54,108 nt of DNA from a virus (taxonomy: Duplodnaviria > Caudoviricetes): positions 1 through 54,108 of IMG/VR virus record IMGVR_UViG_3300008267_006666; one strand, 5' to 3'. A program made the position numbers and the translations under genes. Of this stretch, positions 334 through 10,223 are shown in pieces; the first letter of the stretch is position 1; the number at the start of each line of letters is the position of its first letter. The notes beneath the pieces are model-generated. The model was not told where the DNA came from. It searched no databases and saw only the letters and a program-made list of their open reading frames with translations.

Positions 334-1311
334 ATGAAAATTGTAATTACAAAAGACCAATACCAAATTTTACAAGAAGCCTTCAGAAAAAGGGAAGAAG
401 ATAAAATCGCTACCACTATTAGAGAGTGTCTTAAATTAGTCTACCAACCGAAAGGAAAATGGGGTTCTATTAATGAGCCCGATAATAATTGTGAAACAGG
501 TGAAGGAGTTATTGGTGTTTACCCTCATTTAGAAGGAATTGATAATTGGTCTATTCTAAATAGATTCGATACAAATAGTTTAGTTAGAGATAGATTAAAA
601 GAAATATATATTAAGGACACAAATAATTCTAATTTTACTAACGAAGAATTTATTAAATGGTTATTAGAAAACAAAGAAAAATTATTTGACGGAGAATATA
701 CCGAGGAGTTAGTTAATTTAAATAAAACAACCGTAGAAAAAGGAAATAGGAATGAACAATTTGCAATTGATGTTTTAAAGACAGAATTCCCTAACTCAAA
801 TATTAAAAGATTTTGTTCCGGAGATAAAAGAGATACCAAAATGGGTATGGACATTGCAATAGAATCTGAAGGTGATATTGTGTTTGCTCAAGTTAAATCA
901 TTTGAAAGTGTTAAACATATGTATGAACCTGAAACGGGTAAAGAATTTTATATGGTTAAGGCGTATTTTAATCACGAAAAATATTCAGAAACAAATGTGC
1001 AATTTTTCTTCTTTGTTAATTTTGATAAGAGAGAATATGTAATATTTCAAAATATAAAATCAAATATTCAAACTTCAGGAAATCAAAAAACATTATTCTT
1101 AGAAAATCCTCTATTAATATCAGATAATTTAGAATTAGGTACCGAACCTGAAGAGAGGGTGTATCGACAAACAAAGAACATTAAAAAACAGAAAAAAGTT
1201 AAAGATATTTTTAAAACGTCAAGTAAAAAATTGGATAATCTAATCAAGAAAAGAAATCTTATTGATAAATTAATTGCGAAAGAAATAGAAAATCTTAAAA
1301 CTAATAAATAA
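334..1311 (+). CDS. Putative PD-(D/E)XK nuclease-fold protein with N-terminal leader
   Basis: GNRNE…D.KMGMDIAI…FAQVK resembles a restriction-endonuclease-like active site; leader MKIVITKDQYQILQE. Confidence 0.5.
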   Translation: MKIVITKDQYQILQEAFRKREEDKIATTIRECLKLVYQPKGKWGSINEPDNNCETGEGVIGVYPHLEGIDNWSILNRFDTNSLVRDRLKEIYIKDTNNSNFTNEEFIKWLLENKEKLFDGEYTEELVNLNKTTVEKGNRNEQFAIDVLKTEFPNSNIKRFCSGDKRDTKMGMDIAIESEGDIVFAQVKSFESVKHMYEPETGKEFYMVKAYFNHEKYSETNVQFFFFVNFDKREYVIFQNIKSNIQTSGNQKTLFLENPLLISDNLELGTEPEERVYRQTKNIKKQKKVKDIFKTSSKKLDNLIKKRNLIDKLIAKEIENLKTNK

Positions 1312-1402
1312 AAAAATTAAAAAAATATACAGGAAATTATTAAAAATTAAAATTTTTTAATAAAACACTATATTTATTAATAATAAATAACAAACAAAAA
1401 CT

Positions 1403-2812
1403 ATGGCAAAAGAAAAATCAGTAGTTGAAGATGCGATACTTCAAATGAAGAATTTAGAAGAAACGGTCGCTGAAAATGCAAAAGGAATACTTGCGTCTAC
1501 AATGAAGCAAGAAATCAAAGAATTGGTAAAAGAATCTCTATCCGAACAAGAAGAAGAGGAAGAAGAGGTTGATGATGTTGAAATGGATTCCGAAATCGAA
1601 GGATCTGATTCTGATGAAGATGAAGATGAGATGGAAGATGAAATGGAAACTGATAATGAAGAAGATATGGATTTCGCCGGCATGGAAATGACTCCAGATG
1701 ATGAAGAACCTATCGACTTAACAGGAAAATCTGACGAAGAAGTACTTCGTGTATTCCAATTAATGGGTCCTAATGACAATGTTATTGTTACAAAAGATGA
1801 CTCAGGAAACATCAATCTTAAAGATGGTGAAAAAGAATATATGATTGTACAAGAATCTGATTTAGAAGATTCTGTTATGGACGAAGATTCTGATGAAATG
1901 ATGGAAGAAATGGAAATGGAAGAATCTGAATTGGGTGAAGAAGAAATGGATGAGTCTGAATTAGATGAAGAAGAATCAACCGAAATGGACGAATCTTACG
2001 AAGAAAATGAAGAAATCGTTTATGAAATTTCTTTTGACGATGAAGAGGAAGAAGATGAGGAAGAGGAAGAATATGATGAAGAAGAGTTTTTTGAATCTGA
2101 CGAATCTTTAATGGAATCCAAAATGAAAATAAAAGCAAAAGGTAAAGTTGGTAATGGTCCTAAATTCAAATACTCTGCAAAACCAAATATGGCTGGAGGA
2201 TTTAAAGAAAAAATGAAACAAGGTCCTAAGTCAGTTGGAACAGGTAAAGCCAAATTTGAATACAAAGAAGGTGAAAATTTGGATGGAAAAATGAAGAAAG
2301 TTACCGGCAAAAAAACCGAAACAAAAGAAGCTTCTCGTACTTTAGGTTCAGGAAGAAAGTTTGGAAGAAAAGGACTACCCAAACCAAAAGCAGCTCCAAG
2401 ACACATTCAAGTTGAGTCTACGGATGTTGAAGTTAAACTTCTTAGAGAAAAAAATGAAGAATACAGAAAAGCTCTTAACGTATTTAGAAATAAGTTAAAT
2501 GAAGTAGCGGTATTCAATTCAAACTTAGCTTACGCTACACGTTTGTTTACAGAACACTCAACTTCAAAACAAGAAAAAATAAATATTTTAAGAAGATTTG
2601 ATTCTGTTGAAACATTAAAAGAATCTAAGAATTTATATCAGACCATTAAAAATGAATTGTCTACAGACAAAGGAAAAAGCATAAATGAGTCAGTTGAAAG
2701 AATAATTGAAAGCACACCTGCGACAGGTTCGGCAACAACTTTAATTGAATCAAAAACTTATGAAAATCCTCAGTTTATGAGAATGAAAGATTTAATGGCA
2801 AAAATAAAATAA
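1403..2812 (+). CDS. Prohead core/scaffolding protein
   Basis: Highly acidic centre, coiled-coil C-terminus, many xxE-S motifs, directly upstream of the major capsid gene (T4 gp22 position). Confidence 0.75.
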   Translation: MAKEKSVVEDAILQMKNLEETVAENAKGILASTMKQEIKELVKESLSEQEEEEEEVDDVEMDSEIEGSDSDEDEDEMEDEMETDNEEDMDFAGMEMTPDDEEPIDLTGKSDEEVLRVFQLMGPNDNVIVTKDDSGNINLKDGEKEYMIVQESDLEDSVMDEDSDEMMEEMEMEESELGEEEMDESELDEEESTEMDESYEENEEIVYEISFDDEEEEDEEEEEYDEEEFFESDESLMESKMKIKAKGKVGNGPKFKYSAKPNMAGGFKEKMKQGPKSVGTGKAKFEYKEGENLDGKMKKVTGKKTETKEASRTLGSGRKFGRKGLPKPKAAPRHIQVESTDVEVKLLREKNEEYRKALNVFRNKLNEVAVFNSNLAYATRLFTEHSTSKQEKINILRRFDSVETLKESKNLYQTIKNELSTDKGKSINESVERIIESTPATGSATTLIESKTYENPQFMRMKDLMAKIK

Positions 2813-2842
2813 ATAAAATAAAAAATAAAAAAAAACAAAAAA

Positions 2843-4717
2843 ATGGGAGCATTATTAGAATCAGGTCTTGTTGGTAATATTGGTTTAAAACACCTTAAAG
2901 TTATCAAAGAAGATACAATCAACAAATGGGATAAATTAGGATTCCTAGAAGGTCTTAAAGGACATTTAAAAGAGAACGTAGCTCAGTTATATGAGAACCA
3001 AGCGTCTCACTTAATTAATGAAGCGACTGGAGAAGGTTCAAACGGAGCGTTTGAAACCGTTGTATTTCCAATCGTAAGACGTGTTTTCTCTAAATTATTA
3101 GCGAATGACATCGTATCAGTACAAGCTATGAACTTACCAATCGGTAAATTATTCTACTTCGTACCTAAAATTCAAGGTTTTCAACCTAATACTTACGGTG
3201 ACCCTGGCGCTAACCAATCAGGTGACCATTACGCACCTGTAGGATCACCTAACGCCGTTTACGATGGTGCTAATGACCCTGGACAAGGTTATACTGGAGA
3301 TTACGCATATAAGAAAAATCTTTATGATTTGTTCTATGAAGGAAGTGAAGGAGAACTAGATCCTCCAGGCTTATTTGACTACTCAAAAGGTCGTTGGTCA
3401 GCAATTACTTCAAACGCTACAATGGTTTATTGGAGTAATGGTGAATTAGCCCCAGATACTGCTAGTGATAAATACGTTGGTGTTAATAGAAAAGTAATTG
3501 TAAAACTTTGCAATTTTTCTACGTCAGGTGCAGGTAAATTAATTGGACCTGATGGACATGAAATGGATAACGAATCATTCTTATCTGATTTAAGAATTTA
3601 CTTAACAGGTGAAGGTTCTACTCCTAATATGTCTTTATCAGGATGTGATATTAAAGCAAATACTTCATTATTGTTTAGAGTCGTTACTCAACAATACGGT
3701 AAAAGTATTGTTAAATACGGTTCAACTACTCAAACTTATTGGCCAGGACCCGATCTTACAAATTCACCAGCAGGAAACGGCGGATCATTTAAAGATATCT
3801 GCGACGCTGAAGGTTGTATTTATTTAGAAGTTGATCTTTCTTGTCCTGTATGCGCTGAATGTGGTTCAGGAACTTTAGATGGTTACACAGGTTCAACAAT
3901 CGAATCATACAATTATAGCACCGCATTCGCAGCTGCTTGGAGACGTTATGAAGAACTTGAATTCGAAGACAAAATTGGTGAAGTTTCTTTCGATTTAGAA
4001 TCTGTTACGGTTTCTGTTACTGAAAGAAAATTAAGAGCACAATGGTCTCCAGAATTAGCTCAAGACGTTGCGGCATTCCACAACATTGATGCTGAGGCTG
4101 AATTAACAGCATTGTTATCTGAACAAGTTGCGGCTGAAATCGACCGTGAAATCTTACGTGACTTACGTAAAGGTGCGGCTTGGACATTACGTTGGGATTA
4201 CAACGGATGGAGAAGAGTTACAGGTTTAGCAACTTCTTACACTCAGAAAGATTGGAATCAGACTTTGATTACAACTATTAACCAATTGTCAGCTCAAATC
4301 CACAAGTCAACTCTTCGTGGTGGTGCTAACTGGATCGTTGTATCAAGTGAGATTTCTGCAATCTTTGATGATTTAGAATACTTCCACGTATCTAACGCAT
4401 CTCCTGAGCAAGATCAGTACAACATGGGTATTGAAAGAGTAGGTACTTTAGCAGGTCGTTACCAAGTGTATCGTGACCCTTATTTCCCACCAAACACAAT
4501 TTTGATTGGGCATAAAGGAACATCGTTACTTGACACTGGTTACATCTACGCACCGTACGTACCATTACAATTAACACCTACAATGTATAATCCATTTAAT
4601 TTTACACCAATTAAAGGTATTATGACAAGATACGCGAAGAAAATGGTAAACAACCGTTTCTACGCGAAAATTACCGTAGATGGTGTTCGTACATTTGATT
4701 TAAGAGAGTTAAGATAA
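2843..4717 (+). CDS. gp23: Major capsid protein, T4 gp23-like, with a large central insertion
   Basis: PIVRRVF…LLANDIVSVQAM, RKLRAQWSPELAQD, DAEAELTALLSEQVAAEIDREI, YAPYVPL, P.KGIMTRY are gp23 hallmarks. Confidence 0.95.
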   Translation: MGALLESGLVGNIGLKHLKVIKEDTINKWDKLGFLEGLKGHLKENVAQLYENQASHLINEATGEGSNGAFETVVFPIVRRVFSKLLANDIVSVQAMNLPIGKLFYFVPKIQGFQPNTYGDPGANQSGDHYAPVGSPNAVYDGANDPGQGYTGDYAYKKNLYDLFYEGSEGELDPPGLFDYSKGRWSAITSNATMVYWSNGELAPDTASDKYVGVNRKVIVKLCNFSTSGAGKLIGPDGHEMDNESFLSDLRIYLTGEGSTPNMSLSGCDIKANTSLLFRVVTQQYGKSIVKYGSTTQTYWPGPDLTNSPAGNGGSFKDICDAEGCIYLEVDLSCPVCAECGSGTLDGYTGSTIESYNYSTAFAAAWRRYEELEFEDKIGEVSFDLESVTVSVTERKLRAQWSPELAQDVAAFHNIDAEAELTALLSEQVAAEIDREILRDLRKGAAWTLRWDYNGWRRVTGLATSYTQKDWNQTLITTINQLSAQIHKSTLRGGANWIVVSSEISAIFDDLEYFHVSNASPEQDQYNMGIERVGTLAGRYQVYRDPYFPPNTILIGHKGTSLLDTGYIYAPYVPLQLTPTMYNPFNFTPIKGIMTRYAKKMVNNRFYAKITVDGVRTFDLRELR

Positions 4718-4739
4718 TTAAACTCTTAATGAGAAAATT

Positions 4740-4770
4740 AAAAGGTCAGAGAAATCTGACCTTTTTTTTT
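4740..4770 (+). terminator. Rho-independent terminator after capsid gene
   Basis: AAAAGGTCAGA-GAAA-TCTGACCTTTTTTTTT. Confidence 0.9.
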
Positions 4771-4825
4771 GTGGGTTAAAAATAAATGGCTTGATTAATA
4801 TATTTATTATATATAGATTTATAAT

Positions 4826-6514
4826 ATGGTTGATATTAATAAAGTAATTGAATTGTATACCGAAAATAATTACTCCACACATAAATTGGCAGAATTATTT
4901 AAAATTGGACATAAAAAAATAAGTAAAATTTTAAAAGACAATAATGTTGTTATAAGAAAAAAAGGTGGTCAAATAAAAATAGGTAATAGTAAAGAAATTG
5001 AGTCGGGTAAAACAATAAAATATAATTCAGATGATTTTGACCTAGTGGCTGTTTGTAAAAAAACAGGAGAATCAATTAATGACCCCAACAATTTATCAGG
5101 TAAATTAACTAAACATATTTTAGATTTATATGGAGATATTGACATACCTAAAAATAATTACCAAAGAAAAAAATACGAAATACAAAATGGTAAAAAATGG
5201 TTTGAAGAGTATTTTGATATTATAAAAAAAGAAAAAAAAGAAATAAGAAAATGTAGTTTATGTGATTGGTCGACAACAGATATTGACAACAAAACAGGTT
5301 GTTTTGAACAACACGTTTTAGATATTCATAATATGGGTTTATCGGACTATTTAAATAATTTTAAAGATGAAAAAAAATTCCATAAAAATTTCTTAAAAAA
5401 AGAAAATCGAGAAAATGAATTTTTATCAGATAAAAATTTTATTAAATGTGAAATATGTGGTGAAAAAATGATGGTAATAACTAATACTCATTTAATTAAT
5501 AAACACAATATTTCAGTAGAGGAATATAAATTAAAATATCCAAATTCAAAAATAGTATGTAACAGAGTTTCTGAAATTTATTCTAAAATAATAAAAGAAG
5601 TTAATATAAATCAATCCCCTACTTGGACATCTAAAGGTGAAAATGAGATTAAAGAATTTATTGAGGGTTTAGGATTAAAAACTGAAAAAGGTAAAAATAG
5701 AAAATTACTTGAAGGTAAAGAAATTGATATTTTAATTCCTGATAAAAAAATAGGTATAGAATATAATGGGTTATATTTTCATACTGAAAAAATGGGTAAA
5801 AATTCTTCATACCATTTAAATAAAACTTTAGAATCTAATATTAACGGGTATAAACTCATTCAGGTTTTTGAAGATGAGTGGATGGTAAATAAAGATTTAG
5901 TTAAAGAAAAGATAAAACATATTTTAGGATTTAATGGCGGTATTAAAATAGGTGCAAGAAAAACAAAAATTATTAAAATAGATAAAGAACAGAAAACAAT
6001 TTTTTTAAAAGTGAACCACATTCAAGGTAATGACAAGTCTGACATATTTTATGGTGCGTTCTATGAAGATATTTTAATTGGTGTTATGACTTTTAACTCC
6101 AAAAGAAATATGACAAAAAATAAAGATAACGAATATGAGTTAAGTAGGTTCTGTATTAAATCAGGTTATATTATTTCAGGATTGGCATCAAAATTACTTA
6201 AACATTTTATAAATGAATATAACCCAAAAAGTGTGATTAGTTTTGCCGATAGGAGATGGACTATTGACGGGAATAACAATTTATATATTAATTTAGGTTT
6301 TAAATTAGACTCAATTTTAAAACCTTCATATTTTTATTATAATTCATCAGTATCTAAGTATAAGAGATTTCATAAATTCTCATTTGGTAAGAATAATCTA
6401 AAAAAGAAATACCCTAATTTAGATTTTAATAAATCTGAAAATGAATTGACAAAAGAATTGGGTTTTAATAAGATATGGGATTGTGGTTTATTTAAATATA
6501 AATTAACCTTATAA
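4826..6514 (+). CDS. Free-standing homing-endonuclease-like protein: HTH and Zn fingers, Vsr/DUF559-type nuclease, C-terminal Mom-like GNAT domain
   Basis: CxxC…H…H fingers; EIDILIP…IGIEYNGLYFH nuclease motif; ELSRFC…ASKLL…VISFADRRW…LY..LGF GNAT-like motif. Confidence 0.7.
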   Translation: MVDINKVIELYTENNYSTHKLAELFKIGHKKISKILKDNNVVIRKKGGQIKIGNSKEIESGKTIKYNSDDFDLVAVCKKTGESINDPNNLSGKLTKHILDLYGDIDIPKNNYQRKKYEIQNGKKWFEEYFDIIKKEKKEIRKCSLCDWSTTDIDNKTGCFEQHVLDIHNMGLSDYLNNFKDEKKFHKNFLKKENRENEFLSDKNFIKCEICGEKMMVITNTHLINKHNISVEEYKLKYPNSKIVCNRVSEIYSKIIKEVNINQSPTWTSKGENEIKEFIEGLGLKTEKGKNRKLLEGKEIDILIPDKKIGIEYNGLYFHTEKMGKNSSYHLNKTLESNINGYKLIQVFEDEWMVNKDLVKEKIKHILGFNGGIKIGARKTKIIKIDKEQKTIFLKVNHIQGNDKSDIFYGAFYEDILIGVMTFNSKRNMTKNKDNEYELSRFCIKSGYIISGLASKLLKHFINEYNPKSVISFADRRWTIDGNNNLYINLGFKLDSILKPSYFYYNSSVSKYKRFHKFSFGKNNLKKKYPNLDFNKSENELTKELGFNKIWDCGLFKYKLTL

Positions 6515-6527
6515 GATATTTATATGT

Positions 6528-6950
6528 ATGAATCTTAAAAAGTTAATTAGAGAACATTTATTATTAGAGAAAAGAATAGGTCAATTGGTGGATACATTTG
6601 AGATTACAATGTCTTTTGATTTAATCAAACATATGGGTCACGCAGAACAAAGGGCTATGGGTATTGGTAGGGAAAAGATTGATGACTACGATATGAGACC
6701 TGTAAGTAATATGGAAATAAGATATTTTGTTGACCTTTTTAAAAGAGATATTGGAGAAAAAATTATATATGGGGAAATTAAAAATGAAGAACCTTTTGTT
6801 ATTAGAAGTCCTGAGAAAGGCTTGGCTATTCCCCTTAAACCAATTCATAACGGAGGAACTAGTTGGAAATTGGTCGTTTTAACCATTTGGAGGGAAAGTA
6901 ATATTCACAAATTTAAAACATTTGAGGGACAGGTGGTTATTGAAAAATAA
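6528..6950 (+). CDS. Hypothetical protein with leader; possible RNase/toxin-like fold
   Basis: Leader MNLKKLIREHLLLE; HAEQR…R and C-terminal LVVLTIW strand; RTATTTAT at 6516. Confidence 0.55.
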   Translation: MNLKKLIREHLLLEKRIGQLVDTFEITMSFDLIKHMGHAEQRAMGIGREKIDDYDMRPVSNMEIRYFVDLFKRDIGEKIIYGEIKNEEPFVIRSPEKGLAIPLKPIHNGGTSWKLVVLTIWRESNIHKFKTFEGQVVIEK

Positions 6951-7140
6951 AAAGGGGACAATCGTCCCCTTTGGTTTTGAAGTTTTTGTCTGAGCTTGTG
7001 AACTAATCGGTTGTCCGCGTAATAAACAAAGGTGGCTTCAAATTATTCCATCTTAACGATTGAGGTTTACCAAACCCTGAATGTTCGTCATTCATTCCGC
7101 CGAGTTGTTAGGGTAATCTCGGTTCAACCCTTTTCATTAT
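6945..7140 (-). ncRNA. Candidate structured ncRNA (~190 nt)
   Basis: Own Bacteroidota-type promoter and terminator, no ORF over 30 aa in the ATG frame, GC-richer than flanks, visible pseudoknot and hairpins. Confidence 0.55.
6950..6972. terminator. Bidirectional Rho-independent terminator
   Basis: AAAAGGGGAC-AATC-GTCCCCTTT, with A/T tracts on both sides. Confidence 0.85.
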
Positions 7141-7141
7141 A

Positions 7142-7173
7142 CAAATATACAAACTTTTTTTGATTATTCCAAA
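7142..7173 (-). promoter_or_regulatory. Bacteroidota primary-sigma promoter (TTTG-N20-TATATTTG)
   Basis: Reverse complement of 7170-7173 is TTTG and of 7142-7149 is TATATTTG; spacing 20 nt. Confidence 0.75.
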
Positions 7174-7523
7174 TCTTCAATGAAATAAATTTGAATGTAA
7201 ATATAAGTATTTTTTCCCATATTAAGATTTGTGTTTGTCATAATAAGATAATTTTTTAATTCCATTTCAAATTCTTTGTGATTAAATTTAATATCAGAAC
7301 AATGTTCAAATGAGTAGTTTGACAGATGAAAATCATCCATTTGGTCGTAACAAGTTCTGTCAATATGTTTTGATATAAAATCATCACCAAGGGTTATTGT
7401 AACATCCACCTGAAGATGGGAGAAAACTTCTTTATATCTTGTAACATATATGTTTTCAAAAAACGGATATTGTTTTTTTAAGATGATGTTTAATGTCTTT
7501 TCGTATCTTTCTTTCTCTGTCAT
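7164..7523 (-). CDS. Hypothetical protein
   Basis: 119-aa ORF with RTATTTAT (reverse complement of 7529-7536) upstream. Confidence 0.6.
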   Translation of the reverse strand: MTEKERYEKTLNIILKKQYPFFENIYVTRYKEVFSHLQVDVTITLGDDFISKHIDRTCYDQMDDFHLSNYSFEHCSDIKFNHKEFEMELKNYLIMTNTNLNMGKNTYIYIQIYFIEDLE

Positions 7524-7565
7524 TTTTTATAAATATAAGATATTTATATATAAAACTATTTTAAT

Positions 7566-8612
7566 ATGAAAAATTTATTTATTATAAATGAGGACGAGAG
7601 AAAAAGAATTTTAGGTCTTCACGAAACCGCAACTAAAAAACAATATTTAGGTGAGGCTAAAATAACTGGAGATCAATTTAGTGGAAGAAAAGTTGAACTT
7701 GATAAGGAAAATCAAATAACCAAAAACATATACCAACTTCTTTTTACTAGTGGTGGGGGTATGTTACCTGATGTTGATGAAACTAAATTGGTGAATGAAC
7801 TTCTTAAAATCAAAGATGTTAATACTTTTAAACAGGTTAATAATGAATTAACTCAAATTTTTAAATTGCTAAACACGCAATATAAAAATTTAGATTATGT
7901 TTTAAATGATGTTTTAGATTATAATCTTGGGGATAAGTCTGATGTTGAGAGATTAATTTCTCATTTAAATACGTTAGGTGTTAGTAAGGAAATAACTAAA
8001 AATCTTAGAAGTGCTAATTTTGATTCGTCTAAAATACAAGGTGAGACAGCAGCAAATCCTGATCAAACTAAAAAAACACCCGAAGAGGTTAGTAAAAATT
8101 TTAATTACATTTTTACGACAAAATATCCTTGTGTGATGGGTGGTAAAGAAATAAAATATACTTCAGGTAATGGTGGTTTTTATTATAAAATTGGCGATAT
8201 TGTGTATTATGTAAATGGTGGATATAAAAATACTATAACAGGAGCGAAAGGAACTTTTAAATGTAACGGTAAACAAATTTCATTAGATGGTGAAACTGCT
8301 GCAAATCCTGACGTAACTCCAAAACCAAGAGTTGTACCAACAACTAGCGATGAATTATTACAAGGTAAAGGTTATTTAAAATTAAATGATTCTAATAGTT
8401 TAGTTAAACAAGTTCAAAATAATTTAATTTCCGCAGATGAATTTGTAACTCCAACAGGAACTTTTGATAAAGAGACATATGATGCGGTTAAATCATTTCA
8501 AAGTAAAAATGGGCTTAAATCTGATGGTATTGTAGGTAAAAAAACTTGGTCAATTTTGTCAAACGTAAAACCTGAAACTATAGCACCTAAAGAAATTGAT
8601 AGAATTTCTTAA
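7566..8612 (+). CDS. Peptidoglycan-binding-domain protein with N-terminal leader
   Basis: C-terminal VKQVQ…G.FD..T..AVKSFQ…GL..DGIVG.KTW (PG_binding_1 pattern); GETAANPD occurs twice; leader MKNLFIINEDERKRILGLHE. Confidence 0.75.
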   Translation: MKNLFIINEDERKRILGLHETATKKQYLGEAKITGDQFSGRKVELDKENQITKNIYQLLFTSGGGMLPDVDETKLVNELLKIKDVNTFKQVNNELTQIFKLLNTQYKNLDYVLNDVLDYNLGDKSDVERLISHLNTLGVSKEITKNLRSANFDSSKIQGETAANPDQTKKTPEEVSKNFNYIFTTKYPCVMGGKEIKYTSGNGGFYYKIGDIVYYVNGGYKNTITGAKGTFKCNGKQISLDGETAANPDVTPKPRVVPTTSDELLQGKGYLKLNDSNSLVKQVQNNLISADEFVTPTGTFDKETYDAVKSFQSKNGLKSDGIVGKKTWSILSNVKPETIAPKEIDRIS

Positions 8613-9788: not shown

Positions 9789-10188
9789 TTGTGATGTTTT
9801 TAAATATGTTACTTAATGAATGTTTTACGTTAGACCTAATCTCATCTTCCATTTTCTTTCTACGAGTTTCTACCTCATTATCAAAAGATAAATTTAACCT
9901 ATCACTTGTTTTGGGTGTTAAGTCTATTGTGTAACTATAATTGTGATTTACAATGGTAATGGTTCGATTATCCATAATGATAAAGATTTGGTCTTCATCA
10001 TTTTTAATATACCTTTTACCTGAGATTGGTGAGATTAGTAATTTTGATTTCTCTTTGTTAATCAGATTCTTACAAATGCCAATACATTCGTATTCATACT
10101 CTGATTTAACATAGTCTTGTTTTTGAGTTGTTTTTCTTACAAAGGCAATTCCTACTCTTTGGAAAAACCTTTTTACTTTGTGTTTCAT
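9775..10188 (-). CDS. Hypothetical early protein (start revised to ATG 10188)
   Basis: The MYLCI extension in the ORF track overlaps the promoter; ATG AAA CAC follows 4 nt after it. Confidence 0.65.
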   Translation of the reverse strand: MKHKVKRFFQRVGIAFVRKTTQKQDYVKSEYEYECIGICKNLINKEKSKLLISPISGKRYIKNDEDQIFIIMDNRTITIVNHNYSYTIDLTPKTSDRLNLSFDNEVETRRKKMEDEIRSNVKHSLSNIFKNITNEQI

Positions 10189-10192
10189 AATA

Positions 10193-10223
10193 CAAAGATA
10201 CAACTTTTTTTAGAAACTACAAA
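10193..10223 (-). promoter_or_regulatory. Bacteroidota primary-sigma promoter (TTTG-N19-TATCTTTG)
   Basis: Reverse complement of 10220-10223 is TTTG and of 10193-10200 is TATCTTTG. Confidence 0.75.

Follow-up and report, generated by a model that had tools for sequence, protein, structure and literature searches.

What is known of giant phages concerns mainly their proteins, and RNA players in host take-over or counter-defence are only now emerging. Among described systems, the layouts closest to the element reported here are those of the PR'-tR' 6S RNA of phage lambda and of StxS of the Shiga toxin (Stx) phages, in which a promoter is followed by a structured RNA of 130-190 nucleotides (nt) and a strong terminator, and, more generally, those of bacterial and phage small RNAs that either stand alone or derive from a 3' untranslated region (3'-UTR), being made from their own promoter or processed from an upstream messenger RNA (mRNA) whose terminator they share. 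Here we describe an RNA gene on the minus strand, spanning ~7137 to ~6945, of the 54,108-base viral record IMGVR_UViG_3300008267_006666, which is estimated to be 18% complete and is called the window below, at its full length. The gene is genuine and specifies a small RNA that is folded and non-coding; it belongs to a large uncatalogued family that is almost confined to uncultured giant T4-like phages. The family is new but of a familiar general kind, unusual in its abundance, its frozen core and its giant-phage home, and it adds a well-supported RNA gene to phages in which it had been missing from the catalogues.

In many relatives of the window RNA a co-directional gene lies past the terminator, as with lambda 6S and StxS, but the window RNA itself has no co-directional gene for more than 6 kb, and most members lack a promoter of their own. 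Both layouts of the 3'-UTR-derived and stand-alone small RNAs occur within the phage family; unlike in those RNAs, however, what is conserved has a compact fold that includes an invariant knot, and is no single-stranded seed. The preQ1-I riboswitch (RF00522) has a similar arrangement, with a first stem of 5 base pairs (bp), an enclosed loop of 12 nt, an A-rich third loop before the second stem, and highly conserved loops. In the phage RNA, in contrast, the stems are invariant too, three further conserved hairpins follow the core, and the window RNA lies upstream of no gene, the next gene being convergent, with no queuosine genes seen nearby; RF00522 gave no match at E 10 in the window or in typical loci. 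Type III antitoxin RNAs (ToxI-like) and their phage mimics are also pseudoknot-forming, phage-borne and accessory, and one bacterial copy of the RNA core directly precedes two orphan open reading frames (ORFs). In type III antitoxins, a unit of 34-45 nt is repeated in tandem, and the gene of an endoribonuclease toxin follows directly. No tandem repeat is present in the phage RNA, which gives one model match per window or genome, and scans with Pfam, PHROG and PADLOC revealed no toxin family among the neighbouring proteins. A mimic of a host CRISPR repeat would be expected to have many near-copies in a host genome, but none of the 61 genomes searched, all of one candidate host family, contained the core more than once at up to 3 mismatches (a single match in 9 of the 61, versus 2 for a control pattern).

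The preliminary description of this locus, made from the window only, had not recognised the family, and wider comparison gave the same result. At gathering scores, Rfam 15 returned no match in the 54,108 bases of the window or in six typical loci (69,065 bases). When E values up to 10 were allowed, only weak matches appeared (best E 0.2-0.5), and the five that were aligned rely mostly on the terminator or on sequence beyond the core. ARAGORN found no tRNA or tmRNA gene in the window or in 8 family loci. The core sequence strings were found in no paper of the library searched, and among the matches listed for noncoding pseudoknot RNAs of jumbo phages or metagenomes no paper was relevant.

The first 22 bases of the RNA are matched exactly in 51 viral contigs, and a 20-base core occurs exactly in at least 119 metagenome contigs and in one of 185,579 species genomes. 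The two proteins that flank the RNA in the window, in comparison, recur in just 4 viral contigs each. In total, 191 instances were collected, comprising 105 distinct 125-mers. A covariance model of 97 distinct cores gave one match in the window (7046-7131, minus strand; 69.6 bits, E 8e-16) and one in a phage genome of 291,867 bases rated 99% complete (112.7 bits). No blastn match to the RNA was found in 50,697 phage records, and a model search of Flavobacterium phage immuto gave nothing (12.3 bits, E 0.7), as did two huge uncultured phages. The usual member is 130-138 nt long and consists of the core, three hairpins (P3 to P5, with 3 pairs and a 7-nt UGAAANU loop in P4 and 8 pairs in P5), the stretch GAAACUACAC and a terminator. 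A terminator ends every complete member, and these terminators covary. The window represents a small sub-type, with 3 distinct sequences among 14 instances, in which P5 is shortened and followed by a ~65-nt extra domain and a different terminator. Thus, the size of ~190 nt and the UUUGAAG/CUUCAAA domain given in the preliminary description are correct for the window and apply to this sub-type only. The core remains identical between lineages that differ in their hairpins, 3' domains and flanking genes alike.

In the window, this near-invariant 32-nt core occupies 7100-7131 on the minus strand, as judged from the sequence and the family comparison, and can form an H-type pseudoknot from stem S1 (AGGGU 7131-7127 with ACCCU 7114-7110) and stem S2 (CCGAG 7122-7118 with CUCGG 7104-7100), connected by the loops UGAA (7126-7123), AUU (7117-7115) and AACAA (7109-7105). 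Three hairpins follow on the same strand: P3 at 7079-7093 (GAAUG 7093-7089, loop ACGAA, CAUUC 7083-7079), P4 at 7063-7077 (GGGUUU 7077-7072, loop GGU, AAACCU 7068-7063) and the shortened P5 at 7050-7060 (AUC, loop GUUAA, GAU). Over the family alignment, P3, P4 and P5 covary. Standard pairs fill 97.7% of the pair cells of the 97 cores, and 11 pairs are altered on both sides, 4 of the 5 in P3, 1 of the 3 in P4 and 5 of the 8 in P5. None of 500 shuffles attained the observed covariation values, and when partner columns were slid by 1-3 positions, pairing fell to 35-49%. The outer pair of P4 is A-U in 49 cores, G-U in 26 and G-C in 20, and because G-U pairs are frequent, the strand analysed is the transcribed strand.

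The stems of the pseudoknot hardly vary: 8 of the 10 pairs never change, one shows a single G-U, and the outermost pair covaries (A-U in 51, U-A in 33 and unpaired in 13 of the 97 cores), with 97.3-100% of stem cells pairable. Since a search based on the core could itself produce part of this invariance, a second set was collected through a neighbouring membrane protein, and in its 28 distinct RNAs the stems were again invariant, with P3 and P5 free to vary; the covariation of the hairpins was reproduced on this set. A scan anchored on the loops, with the stems left free, likewise gave standard stems only among the matches listed; of 89 newly fetched loci 11 passed the pairing filter, and 10 of these are family members with standard stems. 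Locus L107, picked up in the same scan, was rejected as an unrelated chance match. With 5-bp stems crossed by loops of 4, 3 and 5 nt, the knot makes steric sense. As the stems do not vary, what speaks for it is this steric plausibility together with the one covarying pair, and we do not count it as proven, because a competing hairpin, GGGUUG/CAACUC, is of similar energy (-4.2 kcal/mol versus -4.7 and -5.6 kcal/mol for the single knot stems) and RNAalifold proposes a weak closing helix, GGUU/AAYY, as an alternative. An H-type pseudoknot plausibly forms; of the earlier claim, the strands and their ability to pair hold, and covariation extends to the outermost pair only. The comparison does point clearly to a constraint on the 32-nt core well beyond what base-pairing needs. 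Conservation of a core that is tighter than its helices demand usually marks specific recognition, be it of a protein, of a ligand or in a catalytic fold.

The RNA gene sits in a 213-base gap of the window, between a plus-strand ORF of 140 amino acids (aa) at 6528-6950 and a minus-strand ORF of 119 aa at 7523-7164. A candidate Bacteroidota sigma-A-type promoter at 7142-7173 (minus strand), with TTTG at 7173-7170, a 20-base spacer and TATATTTG at 7149-7142, overlaps and runs past the 3' end of the 119-aa ORF, whose stop codon is at 7166-7164. According to PMC9723704, TAnnTTTG at -12 to -5 is the flavobacterial sigma-A box, and transcription in the window is therefore predicted to start near 7137. 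A short A-rich leader, AUGAAA, read directly at 7132-7137 on the minus strand, precedes the core. Downstream of P5, the extra 3' domain of the window sub-type (6976-7042, minus strand) is closed by UUUGAAG (7042-7036) and CUUCAAA (6982-6976) and contains an inner stem UUUGU/ACAAA and a CGG-ACAA-CCG tip; it is known from 3 sequences, in which one C-to-U change keeps a G-U pair, and typical members are without it. The gene ends in an intrinsic terminator (6943-6972, minus strand), AAAGGGGAC-GAUU-GUCCCCUUU at 6972-6951 with 9 pairs, a 4-nt loop and a U tract. It is the only terminator-like site within 6700-7600, where 0.4 would be expected, and it is common to the RNA and the convergent ORF at 6528-6950. 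All parts named in the preliminary description, i.e., the promoter-like site, the knot strands, the hairpins, the long domain and the GGGGAC/GUCCCC terminator, were found on direct reading of the minus strand, and the GC content was indeed higher than that of the flanks (0.407 across 6950-7099 versus 0.19-0.35 in most flanking bins).

Two observations concern single parts of the window element. A promoter-like site at 10193-10223 on the minus strand, AAAAAAAGTTGTATCTTTG in its extended form, is near-identical to the RNA's promoter, AAAAAAAGTTTGTATATTTG, in agreement with an earlier remark that tied this promoter to that of the gene at 10188. The extra domain (7008-7017 and 6994-7001, minus strand; …GGACAACCGAUUAGUUCACAAGC…) resembles by eye the loops of tandem hairpins in loci L177 and L265 (…GGCAACGGUUYAGACACAAGCC…). 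A second module shared between this domain and the L177/L265 hairpins was rejected, and the likeness is to be taken as weak, because a regular expression matched only the L177 type.

How might such an RNA work? The reading that we tentatively put first, without giving it even odds, is that of a structured RNA that acts in trans and exerts its effect through being bound, either as a decoy or as a subunit of a ribonucleoprotein (RNP). The decoy, antitoxin mimic and ribozyme put forward in the preliminary description were conjectures. It would be a stable, non-coding and highly structured small RNA, recognised as a folded object, and would most likely bind or sequester a conserved host or phage protein or enzyme. 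Its production could follow either of two routes: transcription from a host-type promoter of its own, which is the arrangement in the window, or formation as the part next to the terminator of an upstream transcript, mostly that of a phage sigma-70-like factor. The working part would be the first ~75-95 nt, made up of the A-rich lead-in, the invariant 32-nt core and the three hairpins that are kept in shape and not in sequence. This reading fits best because a fold with an invariant core is combined with no conserved single-stranded seed, no antisense site in the genomes searched and no conserved ORF, in a single-copy accessory gene in a variable slot, and because the RNA forms its own promoter-terminator unit in some genomes and lies at the end of unrelated, early-looking mRNAs in others. 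The comparison establishes the family, its fold and strand, its non-coding nature, its accessory distribution and its synteny; expression of the RNA, its action in trans and its binding by a protein are what we infer from these features. Being accessory, and located in a variable slot beside a phage sigma factor, the RNA is thus a candidate for a role in host take-over or counter-defence. In a wider formulation, the invariant knot and the three hairpins might make up either a new, 5'-cleaving catalytic RNA or a decoy for specific binding, carried as a mobile accessory among giant Bacteroidota phages; this we consider rather doubtful. If the RNA is catalytic, a 5'-cleaving ribozyme would enable giant phages to attach a functional RNA to the end of any early mRNA, and if it is binding, a decoy would disable a conserved enzyme or defence protein of the host. 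RNA biologists can take the alignment and model of the family, with a construct of 95 nt, as an entry point.

Several points weigh against an RNA that is bound in trans. Taken by itself, the window RNA folds only marginally better than shuffled sequence (z -1.84; 10 of 200 shuffles fold equally well), and the window contains 7 occurrences of the promoter pattern against 6.2 expected by chance, so that the case for more than chance rests on the relatives. Among these, the full motif TTTG-N17-23-TAnnTTTG, ending at most 30 nt from the core, is present in 23 of 115 distinct upstream contexts and the -7 box alone in 10 more, the promoter motif being absent from the remaining 82. Thus, the host-type promoter proposed earlier is present in the window and is no general property of the family. 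In 124 of 132 contexts the upstream gene lies on the strand of the RNA, and in 77 of these 124 the distance from its stop codon to the start of the RNA is -2 to +8 nt, as would equally be expected of a 3'-UTR element or of a self-cleaving RNA. Out of 120 contexts, 69 have a co-directional gene next, and a role in cis could therefore apply to most members. Furthermore, invariant cores are typical also of ribozymes and aptamers, and the flanking proteins were uninformative in the family scans and pointed to no partner protein.

The most interesting competing explanation is a self-cleaving ribozyme of a new class, which would cut at its own 5' edge, free itself and leave the upstream mRNA with a defined 3' end. 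This would explain why the fold starts right after stop codons, at the distance given above and whichever gene lies upstream. The conservation upstream of the core is limited to an A run, with A at positions -1, -2 and -3 in 85%, 75% and 68% of the 115 contexts against a background of 40%, and small ribozymes usually look like this, with an invariant pseudoknotted core and hairpins free to vary in sequence. On the other hand, no Rfam model of a known self-cleaving ribozyme (hepatitis delta virus (HDV)-like, hatchet, pistol, twister or hammerhead) matched even at E 10, with the limit that recent classes may be missing from Rfam. HDV-like ribozymes have a P3/L3 hairpin between the P1 strands, and P4 before the return strand of P2. 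By inspection, the strands of the phage core are separated by no hairpin, only by AUU and AACAA, and this plain H-type knot can therefore not be HDV-like. Finally, promoter-bearing members would have a leader of only ~6-10 nt to remove. On balance, we consider a 5'-cleaving ribozyme unlikely.

Next comes regulation in cis, by a riboswitch-like or factor-dependent attenuator in which the 5' knot gates the terminator and thereby read-through from the sigma factor unit into the next gene. A terminator always follows the RNA, the order of sigma factor gene, RNA and membrane-protein gene on one strand looks ancestral, and in the 69 contexts with a co-directional gene this gene lies 150-200 nt past the RNA start. 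Competing folds exist as well: the 5' GGUU can pair with AAYY after P5 in both sub-types, and GGGUUG with CAACUC (-4.2 kcal/mol). These alternative helices, however, vary by G-C to G-U changes only, three covarying hairpins separate the core from the terminator, and no conserved anti-terminator pairing was seen. A convergent gene comes next in 51 of 120 contexts, and the sequence conserved upstream of the membrane-protein gene is unchanged in loci without the RNA, which suggests that this gene has its own promoter. In the window, the unit faces more than 6 kb of genes on the opposite strand; all of 334-6950 is on the plus strand, and since no minus-strand gene comes next, the window RNA cannot be a leader, as the preliminary description had argued from the lack of a following gene. 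That argument is sound for the window and does not carry over to the family, with its many co-directional neighbours. An attenuator is therefore conceivable for most relatives but not for the window, and we rate regulation of a downstream gene as less likely than a bound RNA and, as an account of the family, improbable.

About equally improbable is a passive 3'-UTR module, i.e., a structured end-cap and terminator that stabilise or insulate the upstream mRNA, the RNA having no function of its own. In its favour are the frequent abutment on stop codons (77 of 124 contexts), the terminator shared with the upstream gene, and the dispensability of the RNA, which in relatives is replaced by a bare terminator. 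However, a stabiliser needs no invariant 32-nt sequence, the RNA rides behind unrelated genes, and the window and 22 other contexts carry a full promoter motif of their own.

Somewhat weaker again, and less likely than binding by a protein, is a classical small RNA that base-pairs with host or phage mRNAs. The layout from promoter to terminator would suit such an RNA, and in typical members GAAACUACAC is a single-stranded stretch before the terminator. Yet the window sub-type and other divergent members have a different domain in place of this stretch, so that no single-stranded stretch is common to the sub-types, and the conserved part is folded. At a threshold of 17 out of 20 complementary bases, no antisense site was found in the 99%-complete 292-kb phage genome, and none recurred in the 61 genomes of the candidate host family.

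The preliminary description had also considered a micropeptide gene controlled by the pseudoknot, encoding either MKRVEPRLP or the product of a 30-aa ORF at 7003-7095. Both ORFs exist in the window, the AUG of the first at the predicted transcript start, but the comparison refutes this option and leaves it a negligible probability. In the closest relatives, L033, L036 and L057, one extra A changes the first ORF to ATG AAA AAG GGT TGA, a truncated reading frame of four codons (MKKG-stop), typical members have no ATG before the core, and the AUG of the second ORF is kept in only 43 of the 97 cores. Substitutions in the stems are compensatory and not synonymous, and homologues thus conserve base pairs while their ORFs are broken; we rate peptide coding as less likely than a bound RNA. 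A programmed frameshift or read-through signal was rejected, although no test aimed at it was made, since there is no relation among the upstream genes, an upstream ORF is lacking in some members, and the hairpins downstream change in the manner of an RNA.

The genomic neighbourhood was surveyed in 146 distinct contexts. The common order is a sigma-70-like gene (Sigma70_r2 and r4; phrog_351, E 2.5e-53), an optional small gene coding for a zinc-ribbon protein of 150 aa or a protein of ~170-250 aa, the RNA, an optional convergent gene for a protein of ~145 aa that we call c2, and a gene for a membrane and coiled-coil protein of ~500 aa. For one of the slot genes, Pfam gave a Lar-like zinc-ribbon match that is weak (PF14354, E 1e-3) and falls short of the cut-off. 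The genes that carry the RNA behind them are mutually unrelated, and around the window sub-type neither the sigma factor gene nor the membrane-protein gene is found nearby. Of 80 loci gathered through the membrane protein, 42 contain the RNA, and in some relatives a bare terminator follows the sigma factor or zinc-ribbon gene in its place. Five records that lack the RNA in this slot (37-75% complete) do not contain it elsewhere either. By this distribution, the RNA is a dispensable single-copy accessory gene in a variable slot, carried by a clade of T4-like giant phages with promoters resembling those of Bacteroidota.

The same slot holds a second candidate small RNA gene, 'RNA-2', at L319:2160-2390 (plus strand) and also in L031, L152 and L167, with short forms directly upstream of the main RNA in L041 and L045. 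RNA-2 has a full TTTG...TATCTTTG promoter and is ~130 nt long, beginning with ACAAACGAYGAGAGAU, with a T-arm-like GGGUUUAAAUUCC hairpin close to the 3' end and a GGGUGGG/CCCACCC terminator. The collected loci contain 8 instances with 6 distinct sequences, without a match in Rfam or ARAGORN. In promoter-bearing members of the main family, the ACAAACGAAA leader looks as if left over from the 5' end of RNA-2.

The c2 gene follows the RNA in 52 of the 146 contexts, and in the window it corresponds to the convergent 140-aa ORF at 6528-6950 (plus strand), which is 34% identical over the matched part to the c2 protein of a sister contig and matched no Pfam, PHROG or PADLOC family. It counts as a neighbour of the RNA rather than as an established partner. 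The c2 proteins open with an amphipathic stretch that ends in L-L-E or L-V-E (MNLKKLIREHLLLEK in the window, MSLLRESIRKHLLVEK in L028:2601-3047), and if this leader were a capsid-targeting tag cut by the head protease, the neighbour of the RNA would be an injected protein.

Among the genes of the window is that of a T4-type major capsid protein (Gp23, E 5e-73). Its closest relatives among the 50,697 phage records are the capsid proteins of an uncultured 484-kb phage (44%), Flavobacterium phage immuto (42%) and Microcystis phage Mel-JY01 (41%). The type of promoter, the capsid relative in a Flavobacterium phage and one copy of the RNA in a Crocinitomicaceae metagenome-assembled genome (MAG) point indirectly to a Bacteroidota host. 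That copy, at L164:3023-3127 (plus strand), is the only bacterial one; it lies on a 5.7-kb contig, with bacterial-looking genes around it, of a MAG titled Crocinitomicaceae bacterium, between the gene for a secreted protein with a type IX secretion system (T9SS) tail and the two orphan ORFs (290 and 243 aa), and its 3' part is divergent, with no clear terminator. We treat it as a stray, because the RNA is present in only 1 of 151 genomes of this Crocinitomicaceae-type family and the ORF that follows it is unique among 401 genomes of the order. On the first count an origin of the RNA in the host was rejected, and on the second the idea of a defence or toxin-antitoxin locus. Of 60 other genomes of the host family, 8 contain near-matches with 3 mismatches, which scored at most 18 bits with the model and were dismissed as chance. 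For the ORF after the L164 copy no relative was found in 2.6 Mb of collected loci, mostly phage and metagenome contigs, and a weak JetC-like PADLOC match (E 8e-4) was disregarded, no other family being matched.

Finally, the major capsid gene and the c2 gene of the window are separated by a 562-aa ORF at 4826-6514 (plus strand). Its matches to MTES_1575 (restriction-endonuclease-like, E 3e-4) and ROS/MucR (E 4e-4) are weak, both below the Pfam cut-offs, and from its sequence and position it looks like a free-standing homing-type nuclease inserted beside gp23.

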